In this document: positions 64 to 6,016 of the stretch, piece by piece
How the letters are laid out: every line of letters begins with the position of its first letter
How positions within the stretch are numbered: the stretch's first letter is position 1
Assembly: GCA_963667285.1 (NCBI GenBank)
Contig: OY763326.1
Coordinates: forward strand, 4,847,546 to 4,911,545
DNA length: 64,000 bases
Source of the DNA: Alphaproteobacteria bacterium
Lineage (GTDB): Bacteria; Pseudomonadota; Alphaproteobacteria; MPNO01
Direction: 5' to 3'
Translations under genes and position numbers: made by a program
The notes under the pieces: generated by a model
Told to the model about the DNA's origin: nothing
Seen by the model: the letters and a program-made list of their open reading frames with translations, nothing else
The model's database searches: none

Positions 64-260
64 ATGCCCGGCACCTACGACTATCCCGCCGAGATCAAAC
101 GCGACGAGGACGGCCGCCATGTCGTCGCATTCCCGATTTCGGGTGGGACGCGACGGAGGGCGCGACGCGCGACGAGGCGCTGGAAGAAGCCACAGACCTG
201 TTGCGCGAGCTGATCGCCGCCACGAACCGCGGGGACAAAGTTCTACCGGAGTTGCCGTAA
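64..260 (+). pseudogene. HicB-family antitoxin-like ORF, apparently frameshifted (possible pseudogene)
   Basis: ATG at 64. The N-terminus MPGTYDYPAEIKRDEDGRHVVAF fits the HicB/UPF0150 pattern. After about nt 133 the conserved continuation PDFGWDATEGATRDEALEEATDLLRELIAATNRGDKVLPELP reads in the +2 frame and ends at TAA 258-260. This is consistent with a 1-nt deletion in a C run at 132-134. No hicA is visible because the window starts at nt 1. Confidence 0.45.
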
Positions 261-505
261 GGCTCAAAGGCGCCCGTTGGTCGTGCCCCGGTGCTGAGCG
301 CACGGCAGCCGGCCCGCTACTAACGCTAACGCTAGGGCGGACTCTCGTAACGCCGCCTCGGCCCTGAACACCACAACGTCCAAAGCAACACCCGCCGATG
401 GGGGGCACTCGGCCAAAGTTTCTTTTTCTTTCCAACTGGAAATCTCTTAGCATCTGCACCATACATCCCATATCTTTGATCAACCAGTCTGGGCAGGCAC
501 ACGAT

Positions 506-1234
506 ATGGACTTCGATCAAATTGACTTTTCCGATTTGCCAGCAAATCGGGAAATGGCCTTTATTAACTTGGAACGTCAACTCAAACAGGCTTATGAAGT
601 CAGTTGTGAGAATGACAGACAAAGCCATCGCGGACAAGATGGAATATACACTGGCGAATATGAACCAGAACGCAATTACGTATCAGCTATATTAGCCTTT
701 CTCGATGAACTACGTCTCGATATTGGAGCTCAGGATATTTCTGCCTACTCATGGGACGACGGCCAAGAATTCATGCAGTCGTTCTCGGCCTTCAGGCAGA
801 AGGTGTATTATGCGGTTACTCGGTTTAAGCTGCGAATGGTACGAACCGAAAGCGGCGCCGCTGGTACTCTTCTCGACATTCGATCTGAGTATAAGGTTGA
901 AATCAGCAAACTCTTAACAACAATCAGAAAGATAGTGAATCAGGAAATTAGCGATGAGAACAAGAAAGACAGAATACACCGGAAAATAGCCGCCTTACAA
1001 CTGGAAATCGACAGAGAACGGTCTACCATAGATACACTGTTTAGCGCGGCATTAGATTTCACTCGGACGATCGCGGAATGCGCAGAAAACCTTACACCAC
1101 TCCTAGATAAGGCAGAGCAGGTGAAAAAGCTTATCTGGGATAATACACGGCTACCGCCCTCTCTTCCTGCAAGACATGAGGTGGGATTGATTGAAGATCG
1201 CTCTGACGATTCTGATGATGAAATACCACATTGA
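506..1234 (+). CDS. hypothetical protein in a low-GC island (predicted alpha-helical, acidic C-terminal tail DRSDDSDDEIPH)
   Basis: 243-codon ORF from ATG 506 (MDFDQIDF...), clearly AT-richer than the surrounding ~67% GC DNA (visual estimate). No family recognised. It sits between TA debris and an IS remnant. Confidence 0.5.
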   Translation: MDFDQIDFSDLPANREMAFINLERQLKQAYEVSCENDRQSHRGQDGIYTGEYEPERNYVSAILAFLDELRLDIGAQDISAYSWDDGQEFMQSFSAFRQKVYYAVTRFKLRMVRTESGAAGTLLDIRSEYKVEISKLLTTIRKIVNQEISDENKKDRIHRKIAALQLEIDRERSTIDTLFSAALDFTRTIAECAENLTPLLDKAEQVKKLIWDNTRLPPSLPARHEVGLIEDRSDDSDDEIPH

Positions 1235-1957
1235 TTTCATTTGTTACTTGTTTGACCGATAGCGGTGAACGTTTATTTATTCTCTGCTAGGAATGATGGT
1301 TCCCAACAACTCTAATTGTACAGTCGGCCTGCTACAGTATGCGGCGTGTCGAGGCCGTATCTGACATCCACATTAGAGCATTAATCATGAGCTACGTCCT
1401 CTGCCACCCGGTGGGTCGCGCGTTAGTATCCGTCGGCGACGAGGCCTTGAGCGAGGCCGTCTCCTCGCTACACCGCTTTTGATGCTCGATCAGATGGTGC
1501 TCAGGCTTCTGGCGCCGCTAGGGGACCACGGCTACGTCCTGCCTGGGAATCTAATCGACATCCTCGACTCGACGGAGCGACGGGAGCGGATCGAAGAGGC
1601 GAAGGAGCGTCTGGGGCTGGCGTGATCGGCCCGCTCGGATCGCGCTCATGACGAAGGGGAGGGACGCGATGAAATGACATCGTCAAGACCATATCGCCCC
1701 GTCGCCGGACACCGGGTCCGGAACGGTCCCCATCGTGGCGCGGCCCTCTGGAAACTCGTCTGACAGGCGAGTACCGCGCGAGATTACGGCTCATTGGGAG
1801 GAGAAGATGAGACCTTTGAATTCTCATTCGCCTACTCCCGTAGCAGACGCCTACTCCCGTAGCAGACAGCGCAGAAAAGGCGCCGTGTAGTCCGTGCCGT
1901 GAATGTAAAGCTCGTCCGGGTTTATCGTGCCGGGCTTGAAGTAGATCACGACGCGAT

Positions 1958-2686
1958 TCAGAAACCGGCGCACCGCGCTAATGTCCGCCCGCCTAAAGCC
2001 GGATAGGCCGCCAGCCCGTCCGTTGAGGCACGGGCGATCGCCCCAACATGTAGCAGCGCGCCGTCGATGACCGGATAGCCCGGGTCGCGATCCTCGAAGG
2101 CGAGGAACAGGTCGGTGCCGGCGAGCAGCACCGCTTCCGCGCCCTGTCGTTCGACCAGATCGCGGCCTATGCGGAAAAGGATATTGCGCCCCGCTTCGGT
2201 GACGGCGCCGGCCCTGGCAAGCGCGATATAGGCGTCGTGGACGGCCTTTAGATCGTCGCCTTCCGGGATTGCCGTTTCGACCCCGGCCAGGCCGCCGTAA
2301 ATACCGCTGGTCATCGCCACTGCCGTGCCGATCAGGCCGATCTTCCCGATGCCGCGTTCGCTCAGGCCGGCGGCGATTGCCGGCACGACATTGAGCGCCG
2401 GCAAGGGCGAGATCGGCTCGAAGGCGCAGAAGCAGTAATGCCCGCCGATGGAGGAGATCGCCACCGCCCCGGCGCCGGCTGCCTTGAGACGTTCGGTGAG
2501 CCCGACAAAGACTGCCGCCTGCGCCTGGGCATCGCCCGCCTCTGCATTGGCCGCCAAGCCGTGCGCGTCGGCATGGACGATGGTAAGTTCCATGCGCCGG
2601 CCCGCCGCCTCGTGATGCTGCACAAGATGGCGGTAGTAATGCGCCGTCGCGGCAGGTCCGATGCCGCCGATCAGTCCGATATGCAT
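1958..2686 (-). CDS. aspartate/glutamate/hydantoin racemase family protein
   Basis: Translation MHIGLIGGIGPAATAHYYRHL... carries the typical Asp/Glu racemase N-terminal motif and overall family pattern. ATG at 2686 is preceded by a GAGGAGG RBS. The ORF track extends it to a GTG at 2752. Confidence 0.8.
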   Translation of the reverse strand: MHIGLIGGIGPAATAHYYRHLVQHHEAAGRRMELTIVHADAHGLAANAEAGDAQAQAAVFVGLTERLKAAGAGAVAISSIGGHYCFCAFEPISPLPALNVVPAIAAGLSERGIGKIGLIGTAVAMTSGIYGGLAGVETAIPEGDDLKAVHDAYIALARAGAVTEAGRNILFRIGRDLVERQGAEAVLLAGTDLFLAFEDRDPGYPVIDGALLHVGAIARASTDGLAAYPALGGRTLARCAGF

Positions 2687-3445
2687 GGGCACCTCCTCAA
2701 CAGGCGCCTTGGCGGCCCGGAGGACACCCCATCGCCCGGCGCTCTCCGCCACTTGCTTTCCGCACTAACAGCGAAAGCCCGACAATGAAAATGCCGATTG
2801 AGAGAAAATGCATGATGCGAACGTATCCGGCAGGCCCTCCGACACTTCCGGTCTGCATTGCGGGCTTCCCTGCGCCGATCGCTTCCAGCTGGACGATCTT
2901 CCTCCCAGCTTTGCTTCCCGCACCTTGGCTCTCGGCGAAAGTCTCCCGATGATCGGGAAACTACTCTGGCATATGCGACGCGGGCGGACGGGCGCTCGCG
3001 GTCCGGCGAGGCCCGCGGCGGGGCTCGGGCTACTCTGGAGAGGGCACGATCAATCGTGGATCGCGCCGAGAGGGACGGGCAACGTATTCGCATCGCACTC
3101 GGTAAGCTCGACACGATGATTGACCTCTTGGCCGGCGAGGCAGTCGAAGAAGAACTGTCAGATGTCATCATGCGGGCAGATGATGCCGGACGGGCGCTTG
3201 ATGAGCAGGAGTTTGAAGTTGCGGTTCTCTAAACCGGGATTCCCCATATGGAACACTTCCAGCCCGTTGAGTGTGGTTCGAAACCGCTCGATGTGCAACT
3301 TGCCTTCGAATGACGGCCATCTTCGCGCCGATCCGGATGATTGAGGACCAATTGGCGGCGTTGGTGGCGCGGAATGGCATTTTTGCCGGCGATCCGGGCG
3401 CACCGATCATGTCGGCGGCGACGGGAAGGAACGGGGTGCCGTCGC

Positions 3446-4042
3446 TCATGCCGGGGCTGGCGGCGGTCTGAGCCGGTCGATTCGGCGCAGGATGTCGGCG
3501 AACAGGTCACGAGGAATGACAACCTCGGCCATCTGGAACGTGACGTAGCGCCCGTGGCGCACGACCTTCGCTCCGATCTTGATGAGCTTCTCTCGCAGGC
3601 TGGTCAGTGACCACTGTTCCACGGCATCGGGCAGCGCGAGGGTGCGCATGAAGTTGCCGAGGTTGTAGGCGAGCGCGTGAAGCTGGAGGCGAACGGCATT
3701 GTGGTCGAACCTGCGGCACGACAGGCGTGTCCACCGGATCGCGTTCTTGCCCTCCTTGATCCATTGCTCCGCCGTGCCGCGCCGATTGTAGAACGCAACC
3801 ACCCGCTCGGCGGGGCGGCCCAGGTTGGTGACAATAAACCCGACCCGCGGGTACAACTCACCCGGATGCCACTCGACCTTGGCGACGACGCGGCGGGGCT
3901 TGTCCCAGGTTCCGGCCTGATAACTGAAGCTGGCATGATACCGGCGTATGTCCTTGGGCGGCCTGCCGACGGGGCGCTTCAGGAGATGAGCGATGCTCTC
4001 TTGCAGCACCTTGTTGGCGGGCAGCCGGATGGCGTAGAGCAT
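3446..4042 (-). mobile_element. IS1380-family (IS4-like DDE) transposase, C-terminal ~200 aa fragment only
   Basis: The fragment ...VVAKVEWHPGELYPRVGFIVTNLGRP...YNRRGTAEQWIKEGKNAIRWTRLSCRRFDHNAVRLQLHALAYNLGNFMRTLALP...LREKLIKIGAKVVRHGRYVTFQMAEV matches the conserved C-terminal region of IS1380-family transposases. The N-terminal ~250 aa are absent, so this is a truncated remnant. Confidence 0.6.
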
Positions 4043-4228
4043 GCCGTCGGCTTCGAGGTAGTCGTAGATCTCCGGTGAGGCGAAGGCCGCATCGCCGCGG
4101 AATGACCCGTTCGCCGCCGCGCTCCAACGCCCCCCCGCCCCCCAACGTCATGCCCGGGCGCCCTCTGGCGTCCGGCGCGGCGCTTTCGTAGAGTCGGGCC
4201 GTCCTCCGGGCAATCCGCAGGAGTGGAG

Positions 4229-5044
4229 ATGATCCGTTCGCCGAACCATACCGTCGAGGCCGCCGTGGCCGACGGTGTGTGCACCGTAACCCTGTCGCGG
4301 CCGCAGTCGCTGAACGCGATCGACGGCGACATGGCGACGGCGCTCCATGCGGTGACCGAGGCGGCGGCGGCGGACCGGGCGGTCCGCTGCGTGCTGATCC
4401 GCGGCGCGGGCGATCACTTCATGGCCGGCGGCGACATCGCGGCGTTCCGCGCCAGGCTCGCGGAGATTCCCGGTTCGGAAGACCGGCGCGCCCATTTCGA
4501 GGCCTTCGTGCACCGCGTCCATCCCACGATCCGGGCGCTGCGGGCGATGCCCAAGCCGGCGGTCGCGGCGGTGCACGGCGCGGTGGCCGGGTTCGGGATG
4601 AGCCTGATGTCCGCCTGCGACCTCGCGGTGGCGAGCGAGACCGCCTTCTTCACCCTCGCCTATTGCCATATCGGCGTCAGCCCGGACGGGTCGTCGACCT
4701 ACACCCTGCCGCGCATCGTCGGGCTCAAGCGCAGCTTCGAGATGGCCTATCTCGGCGAGCGCTTCGGCGCGGAGGAGGCGAGGGCCATGGGGCTGGTCAA
4801 CCGCGTCGTGCCCGAGTCCGGGTTCGACGAGGCGGTCGACGGGCTCGCGCGCTGCCTGGCGGCGGGCCCGACCCGCGCCTACGCCAACGCCAAGGCGCTG
4901 CTCAACGCCTCCGGCGGGCGTTCGCTCGACGAACAGCTCGACGCCGAAGCCGCCGCCTTCGCCGACTGCGCCGCGGGCGGGGACTTCGCCGAGGGCATCG
5001 CCGCCTTCCTCGACAAGCGCACCCCCTCCTTCACCGGACGCTGA
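4229..5044 (+). CDS. enoyl-CoA hydratase/isomerase (crotonase superfamily)
   Basis: Crotonase fold motifs (AVHGAVAGFGMSLMSACDLAVAS, DGDMATAL...). GCAGGAG RBS 6 nt upstream of ATG 4229. The ORF track lists an alternative GTG at 4223. Confidence 0.85.
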   Translation: MIRSPNHTVEAAVADGVCTVTLSRPQSLNAIDGDMATALHAVTEAAAADRAVRCVLIRGAGDHFMAGGDIAAFRARLAEIPGSEDRRAHFEAFVHRVHPTIRALRAMPKPAVAAVHGAVAGFGMSLMSACDLAVASETAFFTLAYCHIGVSPDGSSTYTLPRIVGLKRSFEMAYLGERFGAEEARAMGLVNRVVPESGFDEAVDGLARCLAAGPTRAYANAKALLNASGGRSLDEQLDAEAAAFADCAAGGDFAEGIAAFLDKRTPSFTGR

Positions 5045-5062
5045 CGCCCCGTCCCCGGCTCC

Positions 5063-6016
5063 TCAATGGCCCGCCGGCGGGTCGCGGCGCACCGGCCAGG
5101 GCTTGTCGGAGACCACGGCGGGGCGCACCCGCATCTCGTCGGCGATGTCGATCACCATCAGGTCGTAGCCGATCTCGATCCGGCCGTCATACCCCTCGCC
5201 GACCTGGGCGAGCGCCGGGCCGATCACGTCGTCGTTGTTGTACATGTGGTAGATCACCCCGAGCCGGGGCCGGACGGCGGCCAGCACCTCGCCCACCTCG
5301 CGCGGCGCGGTGTGGACCTGTTCGGCGATGATGCGGGCAAGCTCGATCGGCCTTCCCGCCTTGTCGGCATAGACCTCGACCGGGGGGAACGCCTCGTGGA
5401 TCAGCAGGTCGACGCCGCTCGCCTTCTCGATCAGCGCGTCGCATTTCTTGGTGTCGCCGGAGAACACCATCGACCTTCCGGCGTAGTCGATGCGGATGCC
5501 GAAGGTGTTGTGCGGCGGGGTGTGCACTACCTCGAAGGCGGCCACGCGGATGCCGTCCTCCTCCCACACCGTGCCCTCGCCGTAATCCGTCGCCTCGATC
5601 TCGGAGCCCTGGAGGGAGTCGAACACGCGGCGCCGGGTCTCGATGTCCCACGCATAGATCTCACGCAGATGCCCGACGATGTCCTCCGTCCCGGGCGGAC
5701 CCCAGACCCTGAGCGGGCGGCGCCGTCCATAGGTCCAGCCGCCGATCCAGAACTGGTCCAGCCCGCCGATGTGGTCGACGTGATGATGCGTGAGGAAGAC
5801 CTTGTCCACCTCGTCGAACGGGATCTCCAGCGAGGTGAAATTGGCCGGCGTCCCCGAACCGACATCGAGCAGCATCTTGTGCCGGCCCGCCTCGACGAAC
5901 ATGCCGGCCGCCGCCTGGCCGCGGCGCGGGAACGGCGTGCCGGTGCCGAGCAGGGTGACCCGCATCGCGCCCGGCTCCAGCGGTTCGCCGGGGTAGAAGA
6001 CGTGCCGGTTCTCCAT
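5063..6016 (-). CDS. MBL-fold metallo-hydrolase
   Basis: HHHVDHIGG metal-binding motif and beta-lactamase-fold pattern. Convergent with the crotonase gene. Confidence 0.8.
   Translation of the reverse strand: MENRHVFYPGEPLEPGAMRVTLLGTGTPFPRRGQAAAGMFVEAGRHKMLLDVGSGTPANFTSLEIPFDEVDKVFLTHHHVDHIGGLDQFWIGGWTYGRRRPLRVWGPPGTEDIVGHLREIYAWDIETRRRVFDSLQGSEIEATDYGEGTVWEEDGIRVAAFEVVHTPPHNTFGIRIDYAGRSMVFSGDTKKCDALIEKASGVDLLIHEAFPPVEVYADKAGRPIELARIIAEQVHTAPREVGEVLAAVRPRLGVIYHMYNNDDVIGPALAQVGEGYDGRIEIGYDLMVIDIADEMRVRPAVVSDKPWPVRRDPPAGH

Follow-up and report, generated by a model that had tools for sequence, protein, structure and literature searches.

The C-terminal tip of SSB, the bacterial protein that binds single-stranded DNA, is a central docking peptide for more than 12 replication, repair and recombination enzymes as well as for phage recombinases, and current interest in it concerns both its use as a target for antibiotics and its part in determining how portable recombineering is. 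In Escherichia coli SSB, the linker is rich in Gly, Gln and Pro. Among phage SSBs, the acidic tails of T7 gp2.5 and T4 gp32 mediate protein-protein contacts, and that of gp2.5 ends in an aromatic residue. Here, we describe a gene whose product is not an SSB and whose family nevertheless carries a well-supported counterpart of this tip. The gene, an open reading frame (ORF) at positions 506-1234, lies in an AT-rich patch of a 64-kb stretch of the alphaproteobacterial contig OY763326.1, and 'the window' denotes this whole stretch. Our preferred reading, held tentatively and at slightly less than an even chance, is that the gene encodes a horizontally spread mimic of the SSB tip, acting as a decoy or adaptor and probably in conflicts involving phages or mobile elements.

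In chi, exonuclease I (ExoI) and RecQ, the Pro-Phe pair of the SSB tip and its free carboxylate anchor in a hydrophobic pocket with a basic rim, and a single Gly added after the tip Phe abolishes binding to chi (PMC3045619). The E. coli tip reads FDDDIPF; in 18,841 alphaproteobacterial assemblies, the C7 sequence LDDEIPF occurs in 5,795 and the C8 sequence DLDDEIPF in 4,352 (PMC13490951). The nearest precedent for an SSB-like motif on a non-SSB fold is DdrB of Deinococcus radiodurans, which binds single-stranded DNA (ssDNA), lacks the canonical SSB fold and has a disordered C-terminus with a purported SSB-like motif that is dispensable for radioresistance (PMC3834827). The T7 SSB system is treated in PMC12339929. 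A literature search found no published description of a non-SSB family bearing an SSB tip.

Compared with these systems, the family of the window gene shares with SSB the extreme C-terminus. Of the family representatives that are full-length (176 in all), 129 (73%) terminate in [IVLM]-P-F; DDEIPF accounts for 69 and DDDIPF for 19 of the tips, and the exact endings LDDEIPF and DLDDEIPF are found in 29 and 12 representatives. The tail profile reads D/E at position -8, L/M/I/F at -7, D at -6 and -5, E/D at -4, I at -3, P at -2 and F at -1. Over its final eight residues, the family consensus matches the alphaproteobacterial tip exactly; as in SSB, these residues stand at the free C-terminus, behind a linker of about 25-30 residues that is flexible and contains Pro. 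The arrangement of linker plus D-[FL]-D-D-[DE]-I-P-F is present in the family consensus, and the window copy departs from it at the last residue and at two linker positions. The tip is kept in members whose bodies are just 22-30% identical to that of the window protein, and one distant member gives, with its tail, a hit to the NCBIfam SSB model PRK05733 at the C-terminal end of the model. In six-frame translations of about 0.6 Mb, covering the window and the loci that carry homologs, the tip motif occurred solely in the family gene, and tblastn with E. coli SSB as query detected no SSB gene in the same sequences. On this evidence, the family tail is a position-by-position copy of the alphaproteobacterial SSB tip, and the mimicry is well supported. 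An earlier note on this DNA, made from the sequence alone, had described an acidic C-terminal tail; the tail is acidic, but it is not merely so, as in 73% of the representatives it follows the pattern D-[LMIF]-D-D-[ED]-I-P-F. It could be argued that the protein is an ordinary coiled-coil hypothetical protein whose likeness to SSB is coincidental, since Pfam returned only coiled-coil-type noise (for example ADIP and DUF2046) and no known fold was recognized. A match over eight positions, down to the Pro-Phe at the free C-terminus, kept in 73% of the representatives over such divergent bodies and following the variant of the host clade (DDEIPF, Alphaproteobacteria) instead of a generic acidic tail, makes coincidence very improbable, and we disfavour it.

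The remainder of the protein is unlike SSB. An AlphaFold2 (AF2) model of the 242-aa protein on the deeper alignment reached a mean predicted local distance difference test score (pLDDT) of 92.2 and a predicted template modelling score (pTM) of 0.71, with helices at residues 15-40, 53-68, 86-116, 127-147, 151-169, 175-192 and 197-212. As modelled, the protein, which we take to be soluble, has a conserved, ordered, all-alpha, acidic body (residues 1-213), followed by a flexible linker rich in Lys and Pro and by a peptide at the C-terminus. The body has a net charge of about -9 and a pI of about 5.0 (N-domain pI 4.65). Family linkers contain 17.5% Lys and 12.8% Pro, often with the motif LPxPxxxK[LI], which sets them apart from the Gly/Gln/Pro-rich linker of E. 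coli SSB. Foldseek searches of the model against PDB and BFVD returned no structural neighbour, and neither Pfam nor NCBIfam gave a body match for the window protein, 51 close members or 10 distant members. PDB sequence searches, for which both a single-protein query and a profile query were used, yielded nothing beyond a marginal match to the winged-helix region of CtsR (E 0.012); this likeness was rejected, as the AF2 model shows a continuous helix at the position of the CtsR wing. The protein can be likened to the C-terminal third of an SSB, yet, without an oligonucleotide-binding (OB) fold, it cannot be classed as one; it falls outside known kinds, and its function has to be read from a short motif and from context. 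The earlier description of a helical protein without a recognizable family holds (sequence searches of Pfam, NCBIfam, PADLOC and PDB gave no match to an entry), and the remote-homology and structure searches that it had proposed gave a confident model, no fold relative and no housekeeping family.

These data also bear on the possibility that the protein is an alternative, non-OB ssDNA-binding protein (compare Deinococcus DdrB or plasmid and phage SSBs), with a body that binds ssDNA and a linker and tip that recruit SSB partners. The order of core, Pro-rich linker and acidic tip is that of SSB, the weak CtsR match would fit a DNA-binding body, and some copies lie on an integrative and conjugative element (ICE), a plasmid or a phage-like contig. 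However, the strongly acidic body makes binding of ssDNA unlikely, there is no OB fold, SSB Pfam match or fold match to DNA-binding proteins, the CtsR similarity is marginal and unsupported by the model, and the gene lies outside replication modules. DdrB was not among the PDB sequence or Foldseek matches, and the acidic family body is unlike DdrB. We consider this alternative decidedly unlikely.

The window gene is a real gene under purifying selection. Alignment with the family speaks for the ATG at 506 as start codon and gives no support to an upstream ATG at 398; the ORF is clean and intact, as had been stated, and with the stop codon included it encodes 242 aa, not 243. A word-indexed search retrieved 52 close homologs of about 242 aa with 40-70% identity, all of them unnamed; those with taxonomy all belong to Alphaproteobacteria, mostly marine, and one gammaproteobacterial member was found in Marinobacterium. 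An exhaustive profile search of 1.84 billion representatives returned at least 1,124 clusters (representatives at 50% identity) at E ≤ 1e-3 and 425 at E ≤ 1e-10, and nearly all of the 150 clusters listed measure 220-250 aa with a single matched stretch. The gene is therefore not the orphan it had been taken for. A homology search with the broad alignment, limited in the number of candidates, contributed little more, and a metagenome scan with the alignment of close members gave mostly short contigs. The ratio of nonsynonymous to synonymous substitutions (dN/dS) was 0.17 (dS 0.07) against a 96%-identical metagenomic copy (loci L055/L056) and 0.11 against a relative with a 70%-identical protein, for which dS is saturated; both values indicate purifying selection. 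We rejected the idea of a pseudogene in decay for the window copy, given the intact ORF, the dN/dS of 0.17 and the conservation of the His codon described below. At another locus, downstream of dnaJ (L028:10001-10728), the homolog is split into ORFs of 96 and 142 aa and is likely a pseudogene, so that the gene is able to decay in place.

The tip of the window copy is atypical. It ends in D-D-E-I-P-H, while all 50 other close members carry Phe at this position; among the 176 representatives, DDEIPH occurs only in P0001 and P0053. In its linker, conserved basic residues are lost (R225E and K227G) and the LPxPxxxK[LI] motif is degenerate. The terminal His is not an error, because the CAT codon is kept in the 96%-identical copy of L055, which differs at 7 residues and in the stop codon. 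Taken together with the purifying selection on this lineage, the His means that either the tip tolerates the exchange or the window copy works without the tip. Judging from the sequence, the tip of the window copy is probably weakened or retargeted, with the body still being selected.

The gene resides in foreign DNA. GC content is 0.457 in the region 398-1420 and 0.449 in the ORF, compared to 0.668 in the whole window; scanned in 1-kb segments (standard deviation 0.033), the 64 kb have their minimum in the segment that starts at 401 and show no other dip of comparable depth. GC at third codon positions (GC3) is 0.43 in the ORF versus 0.89 ± 0.04 in 42 long host ORFs (z = -11), and the codon adaptation index trained on these ORFs is 0.24 versus 0.72 ± 0.07 (z = -6.8), which places the foreign signal at synonymous sites. 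The AT-richness and acquired composition proposed earlier are thereby borne out, and the host-like GC and codon usage that would have spoken against them was looked for quantitatively and not found. The metagenomic relative shares with window positions 467-1471 a block of 1,006 bp at 95.9% identity, and its flanks on both sides are unrelated to those of the window; this delimits a shared unit of about 1 kb, made up of a 39-bp leader, the coding sequence (CDS) and 237 bp of 3' sequence. Its surroundings thus differ between lineages that are closely related. Horizontal acquisition of a single gene accounts for the patch, an islet of about 1 kb at about 467-1471. In the left 70 bp or so of the AT-rich patch (398-466), the relative carries a different AT-rich sequence. 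The leader is partly similar to the sequence upstream of the homologs in L021 and L057, yet it is not family-wide; it may serve as promoter or ribosome-binding site. On the right, the shared block breaks off within a small ORF whose translation aligns with that of its 92-aa counterpart in the relative up to ...GDEALSEA and then diverges; this small ORF was not seen beside other homologs. No Rfam family, tRNA (as integration site) or terminator-like site was detected in the patch, and the repeats around it, inverted or direct, are merely short and at chance level.

The same islet behaviour is found across the family: at 18 of the 20 loci compared, GC content of the gene is 9-25 points below that of its surroundings, and the AT-rich patch usually comprises the ORF ± 150 bp only. 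An all-against-all comparison of neighbours across 21 loci revealed no conserved partner gene. Recurrent contexts derive solely from near-identical copies (at least 92% identity), and every lineage at or below 72% identity sits at a different site. The flanks of 22 loci contain no shared non-coding ends or repeats, and no attC-like sites, target duplications or terminal repeats were found. The alphaproteobacterial SOS box GTTC-N7-GTTC is absent upstream, or present as one-mismatch matches in a few loci only. Many insertions lie at junctions of core genes: in a metagenome contig (Ga0222645_101230; L045:3227-4361), a homolog lies between rplW (L23) and rplB (L2) in the S10 operon, as an insert of about 1.1 kb that consists of the homolog, a terminator-like hairpin and a spacer of about 250 bp. 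Other homologs follow nrdJ, an nrdB-like gene, pyrG, dnaJ (the split copy) and rplP, or adjoin rpoD, pnp, uvrB, nadA-nadB and a photolyase gene. At two near-identical loci, an unannotated 96-aa ORF without Pfam match stands between the class II ribonucleotide reductase gene nrdJ and the homolog (L022:9675-9965, L043:2509-2799). Also, uvrB is a neighbour in two unrelated lineages (L007:10747-12786, L054:438-2609), and in L054 toxin-antitoxin (TA) genes (MNT-HepT, BrnA and HicAB) crowd the stretch that separates uvrB from the homolog; there may be a uvrB-adjacent integration hotspot in Alphaproteobacteria.

Such a distribution could be that of a selfish mobile ORF which spreads by recombination into conserved loci, with the SSB tip promoting its own gene conversion or retention and any benefit to the host being incidental. 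The lineage-specific sites, the narrow AT-rich patch, the 96%-identical 1-kb block in unrelated flanks and the positions within or beside conserved genes (wedged between rplW and rplB, behind nrdJ, the nrdB-like gene, pyrG, dnaJ, rplP and repA, or alongside rpoD, pnp, uvrB and nadA) would all be expected. However, terminal repeats, attC-like sites, target duplications and conserved non-coding ends are lacking, as are nuclease, recombinase or transposase motifs and an invariant His/Asp catalytic set in the protein family. By the same features, the gene differs from insertion sequences (IS) and miniature inverted-repeat elements, integron cassettes and homing-endonuclease genes. We regard the selfish scenario as rather unlikely.

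The second type of context is that of genomic conflict. Defence or TA genes neighbour the homolog in roughly 10 of about 26 distinct lineages (raw count), the others being located at core-gene junctions. PADLOC matches to RT_UG29 and RTasDnaG-like models among the bulk neighbours were not assignable to a locus, may stem from a housekeeping DnaG beside rpoD, and were not counted as defence neighbours. In two loci (L002:7347-10732 and L039:1240-4754), the start codon of the homolog overlaps the stop codon of an MmeI-family type IIG restriction-modification (RM) gene, which suggests translational coupling. The MmeI-type locus lies inside a serine-recombinase island with Mrr, RNase T, helicase and T5orf172; after the homolog comes a DUF6119 gene in L039, and in L002 a 218-aa ORF with genes for a helicase and a T5orf172 protein. 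TA-rich hotspots near homologs contain HicAB, BrnA, MNT-HepT, Phd, ParDE, RelE and SocA/Panacea, and two of them adjoin uvrB. The gene thus resembles the single-gene cargo of defence and TA islands in being small, AT-rich, fast-moving and placed in TA, RM and retron hotspots; it differs from such cargo in that it has no PADLOC match and that half of its contexts are core-gene junctions.

Given these neighbourhoods, the protein might also act as a toxin or as an effector of abortive infection, under the control of a small regulator or antitoxin encoded next to it, with the tail being secondary. Small co-oriented ORFs stand directly upstream of the homolog in many loci (XRE-type helix-turn-helix (HTH) in L007, S24 peptidase in L005, HicB/ribbon-helix-helix in L016, HTH_37 in L052, and MarR plus a ParD fragment in L001), the plasmid copy has a divergent HTH_3 regulator, and in the window a hicB remnant lies upstream, TA-rich neighbourhoods being common in general. 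These upstream ORFs are mutually unrelated, though, and in some loci their place is taken by housekeeping L23 or an EcoRV fragment. Unlike a type II TA module, the family has no conserved cognate partner and no neighbour cluster common to the 21 loci, and the window hicB remnant is high-GC host DNA outside the shared unit. We give this possibility a small chance.

In two lineages, a complete retron of the Retron-Eco2/Ec67 type (type I-C) lies directly downstream of the homolog (L001:10721-12902 and L052:10706-12712, also L053). In each case, the gap contains the conserved a1/a2 inverted repeat (GCTTGCGGGCA...TGCCCGCAAGC), followed by the gene for a fused reverse transcriptase (RT) and Toprim domain, the product of which matches PDB 9i2f (E 3e-114); in L052, this gene is split into 363 and 169 aa. 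The RTs of L001 and L052 are 51% identical, the homologs beside them merely 31%. A tblastn search found no Eco2-type retron in the window or in the other loci; with the adjacency confined to L001 and L052/L053, the gene is not a conserved retron component. A survey of retrons lists no accessory ORF for type I-C and does not describe the adjacency observed here (PMC7736814). As a separate observation, the urease operon of L052, about 5 kb from the homolog and unrelated to it, contains an antisense match to the Rfam family 5_ureB_sRNA (109 bits; 5004-5289, minus strand).

Taken together, the solitary AT-rich islet, the lack of synteny and the frequent TA, RM, retron and mobile-element neighbours point to a role in conflict instead of housekeeping. 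On the basis of the short linear motif, we infer that the family tip would insert into the basic-rimmed hydrophobic pocket used by SSB-interacting proteins, candidate owners of which are chi, RecQ, ExoI, PriA, RecO and the RecT-type annealing proteins of phages. The protein could then be a competitive decoy for SSB partners of the host or of a phage, or it could be an adaptor that brings an SSB partner to whatever the body binds.

Several observations weigh against a tip-mimicking conflict protein. About 27% of the family representatives have no IPF tip, although mostly acidic ends are retained; body conservation is the same in tip-less and tip-bearing members (0.586 vs 0.588), which indicates a body function independent of the SSB tip, and no body positions were differentially conserved between the two groups. 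The His-ended lineage of the window is still under selection. In addition, the tail may dock on its own body and not on partners, with possible auto-inhibition, as the pLDDT of linker and tail was <50 to 64 in model 1 (shallow alignment) and 66-83 in model 2 (residues 211-242). As to context, about half of the sites are junctions of core housekeeping genes and not defence islands, none of the PADLOC-DB v2 defence models matched at E ≤ 10, no member was found in 50,697 phage genomes, and only one in 72,556 plasmids. The placement, which the earlier note had called typical of defence, abortive-infection or phage-derived genes, is accordingly only in part what it seemed: homologs often lie in defence, TA or mobile-element neighbourhoods, but the lack of PADLOC and phage matches, of a conserved partner and, at around half the sites, of any defence setting does not fit. 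A role in defence or abortive infection is plausible.

The mimicry could instead serve the mobile elements themselves, as a counter-defence or takeover factor whose tip blocks host SSB partners (for example nucleases or helicases acting on SSB-coated incoming ssDNA) and whose acidic body is perhaps a nucleic-acid mimic, to the benefit of the carrier element and not of the host. The evidence for the tip is the same as for our preferred reading, and homologs do occur in mobile settings: a P4-like island, an ICE-like region, the vicinity of a relaxase, a replicon with repA (which the homolog follows), one plasmid, and a phage-like contig with a D5 primase and a gpA terminase. The association with varied hosts is tight and leaderless. 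DNA mimics of the Ocr, ArdA and Gam type are small, strongly acidic, helical and conflict-associated proteins. The family protein shares these traits, but the body resembles the mimics in charge only, and Foldseek against PDB and BFVD detected no similarity of fold. Most copies are chromosomal and solitary, without a surrounding element; besides the phage and plasmid counts given above, IMG/VR yielded only 4 members in 2.9 million contigs, and a PHROGs search with the window protein gave noise only. As regards the phage SSBs T7 gp2.5 and T4 gp32, tip-less family members keep generic acidic tails like theirs; gp2.5 and gp32, however, bind ssDNA through an OB fold and belong to replication modules of phages, genomes in which the family was not found. 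We view a counter-defence factor as possible but unlikely.

If our reading of a tip mimic is correct, the family represents a widespread natural case of the SSB peptide on a non-DNA-binding scaffold, that is, a ready-made inhibitor or adaptor of the SSB hub, and would give experiments direct access to the ways in which cells or mobile elements influence the recruitment of SSB partners. It might define a new mimicry-based mechanism of conflict. More speculatively, and with a probability that we rate as fairly low, it would be an unrecognized class of proteins in which a non-SSB scaffold shows the host SSB tip to hijack or decoy the SSB interactome, carried as a self-contained, persistently AT-rich one-gene islet among mainly marine Alphaproteobacteria and lodging even in ribosomal-protein and nucleotide-synthesis operons. 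It could then provide single-gene immunity or counter-immunity by peptide mimicry of a replication hub, perhaps working together, in certain lineages, with Eco2-type retrons, whose product is ssDNA. In evolutionary terms, it is puzzling that a single gene 10-25 GC points below its hosts is inserted beside or inside the most conserved operons without recognizable mobility machinery; the SSB gene is essential, in contrast to this rare accessory islet. The SSB-tip mimicry and the family-wide islet behaviour make the finding more interesting than the earlier note had stated, tempered by the atypical tip of the window copy: the window islet itself is the more modest case, real and foreign, with a gene under selection and His in place of Phe.

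The features of the islet and its flanks are listed in Table 1.

Table 1. Position of the islet, its parts and the flanking remnants in the 64-kb window
Feature	Position	Strand	Remarks
hicB-like antitoxin remnant	64-260	+	Truncated, frameshifted near 135; two-frame translation MPGTYDYPAEIKRDEDGRHVVAFP / DFGWDATEGATRDEALEEATDLLRELIAATNRGDKVLPELP, followed by a stop
Left margin of the low-GC patch, AT-rich	398-466		GC falls from 0.63 to 0.51; homology to L055/L056 starts only at 467
Conserved 39-bp leader, CCCATATCTTTGATCAACCAGTCTGGGCAGGCACACGAT	467-505	+	Abuts the start codon; identical in L055/L056
CDS of the 242-aa protein	506-1234	+	Acidic all-alpha body (predicted), Lys/Pro-rich linker, SSB-tip-like C-terminus
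Linker, residues 214-236	1145-1213	+	Outside the helical body by AF2 pLDDT
C-terminal tip D-D-E-I-P-H, residues 237-242	1214-1231	+	Family consensus D-D-E-I-P-F, the tip of the SSB C-terminus
3' segment of the shared unit	1235-1471	+	AT-rich untranslated stretch, then GC-richer; the L055/L056 block stops at 1471
Small downstream ORF, 47 aa	1339-1482	+	Cut-down version of a 92-aa ORF in the relative (L055:928-1206)
IS-type DDE transposase remnant	3446-4042	-	C-terminal half only; PF13701 DDE_Tnp_1_4, E 6.3e-59, profile positions 241-434 of 435

The TA and IS debris reported earlier for this region is present, in a somewhat different arrangement. After repair of the frameshift, the three best PDB matches of the upstream remnant are all HicB, with weak E values of 0.12-0.73; its GC content of 0.67 marks it as host-type DNA. 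The transposase remnant, described before as an IS1380 remnant bordering the islet, lies about 2.2 kb away and is not adjacent; it is a mark of past rearrangement near the islet. Just to the right of the islet, a 48-aa ORF at 1479-1625 (plus strand; ...LPGNLIDILDSTERRERIEEAKERLGLA), without family match, may be a fragment of a disrupted gene, and an Asp/Glu/hydantoin racemase gene (PF01177) follows at 1958-2752 on the minus strand. GC content across 1500-4100 is 0.59-0.65, slightly below the remainder of the window, which suggests a rearranged zone.

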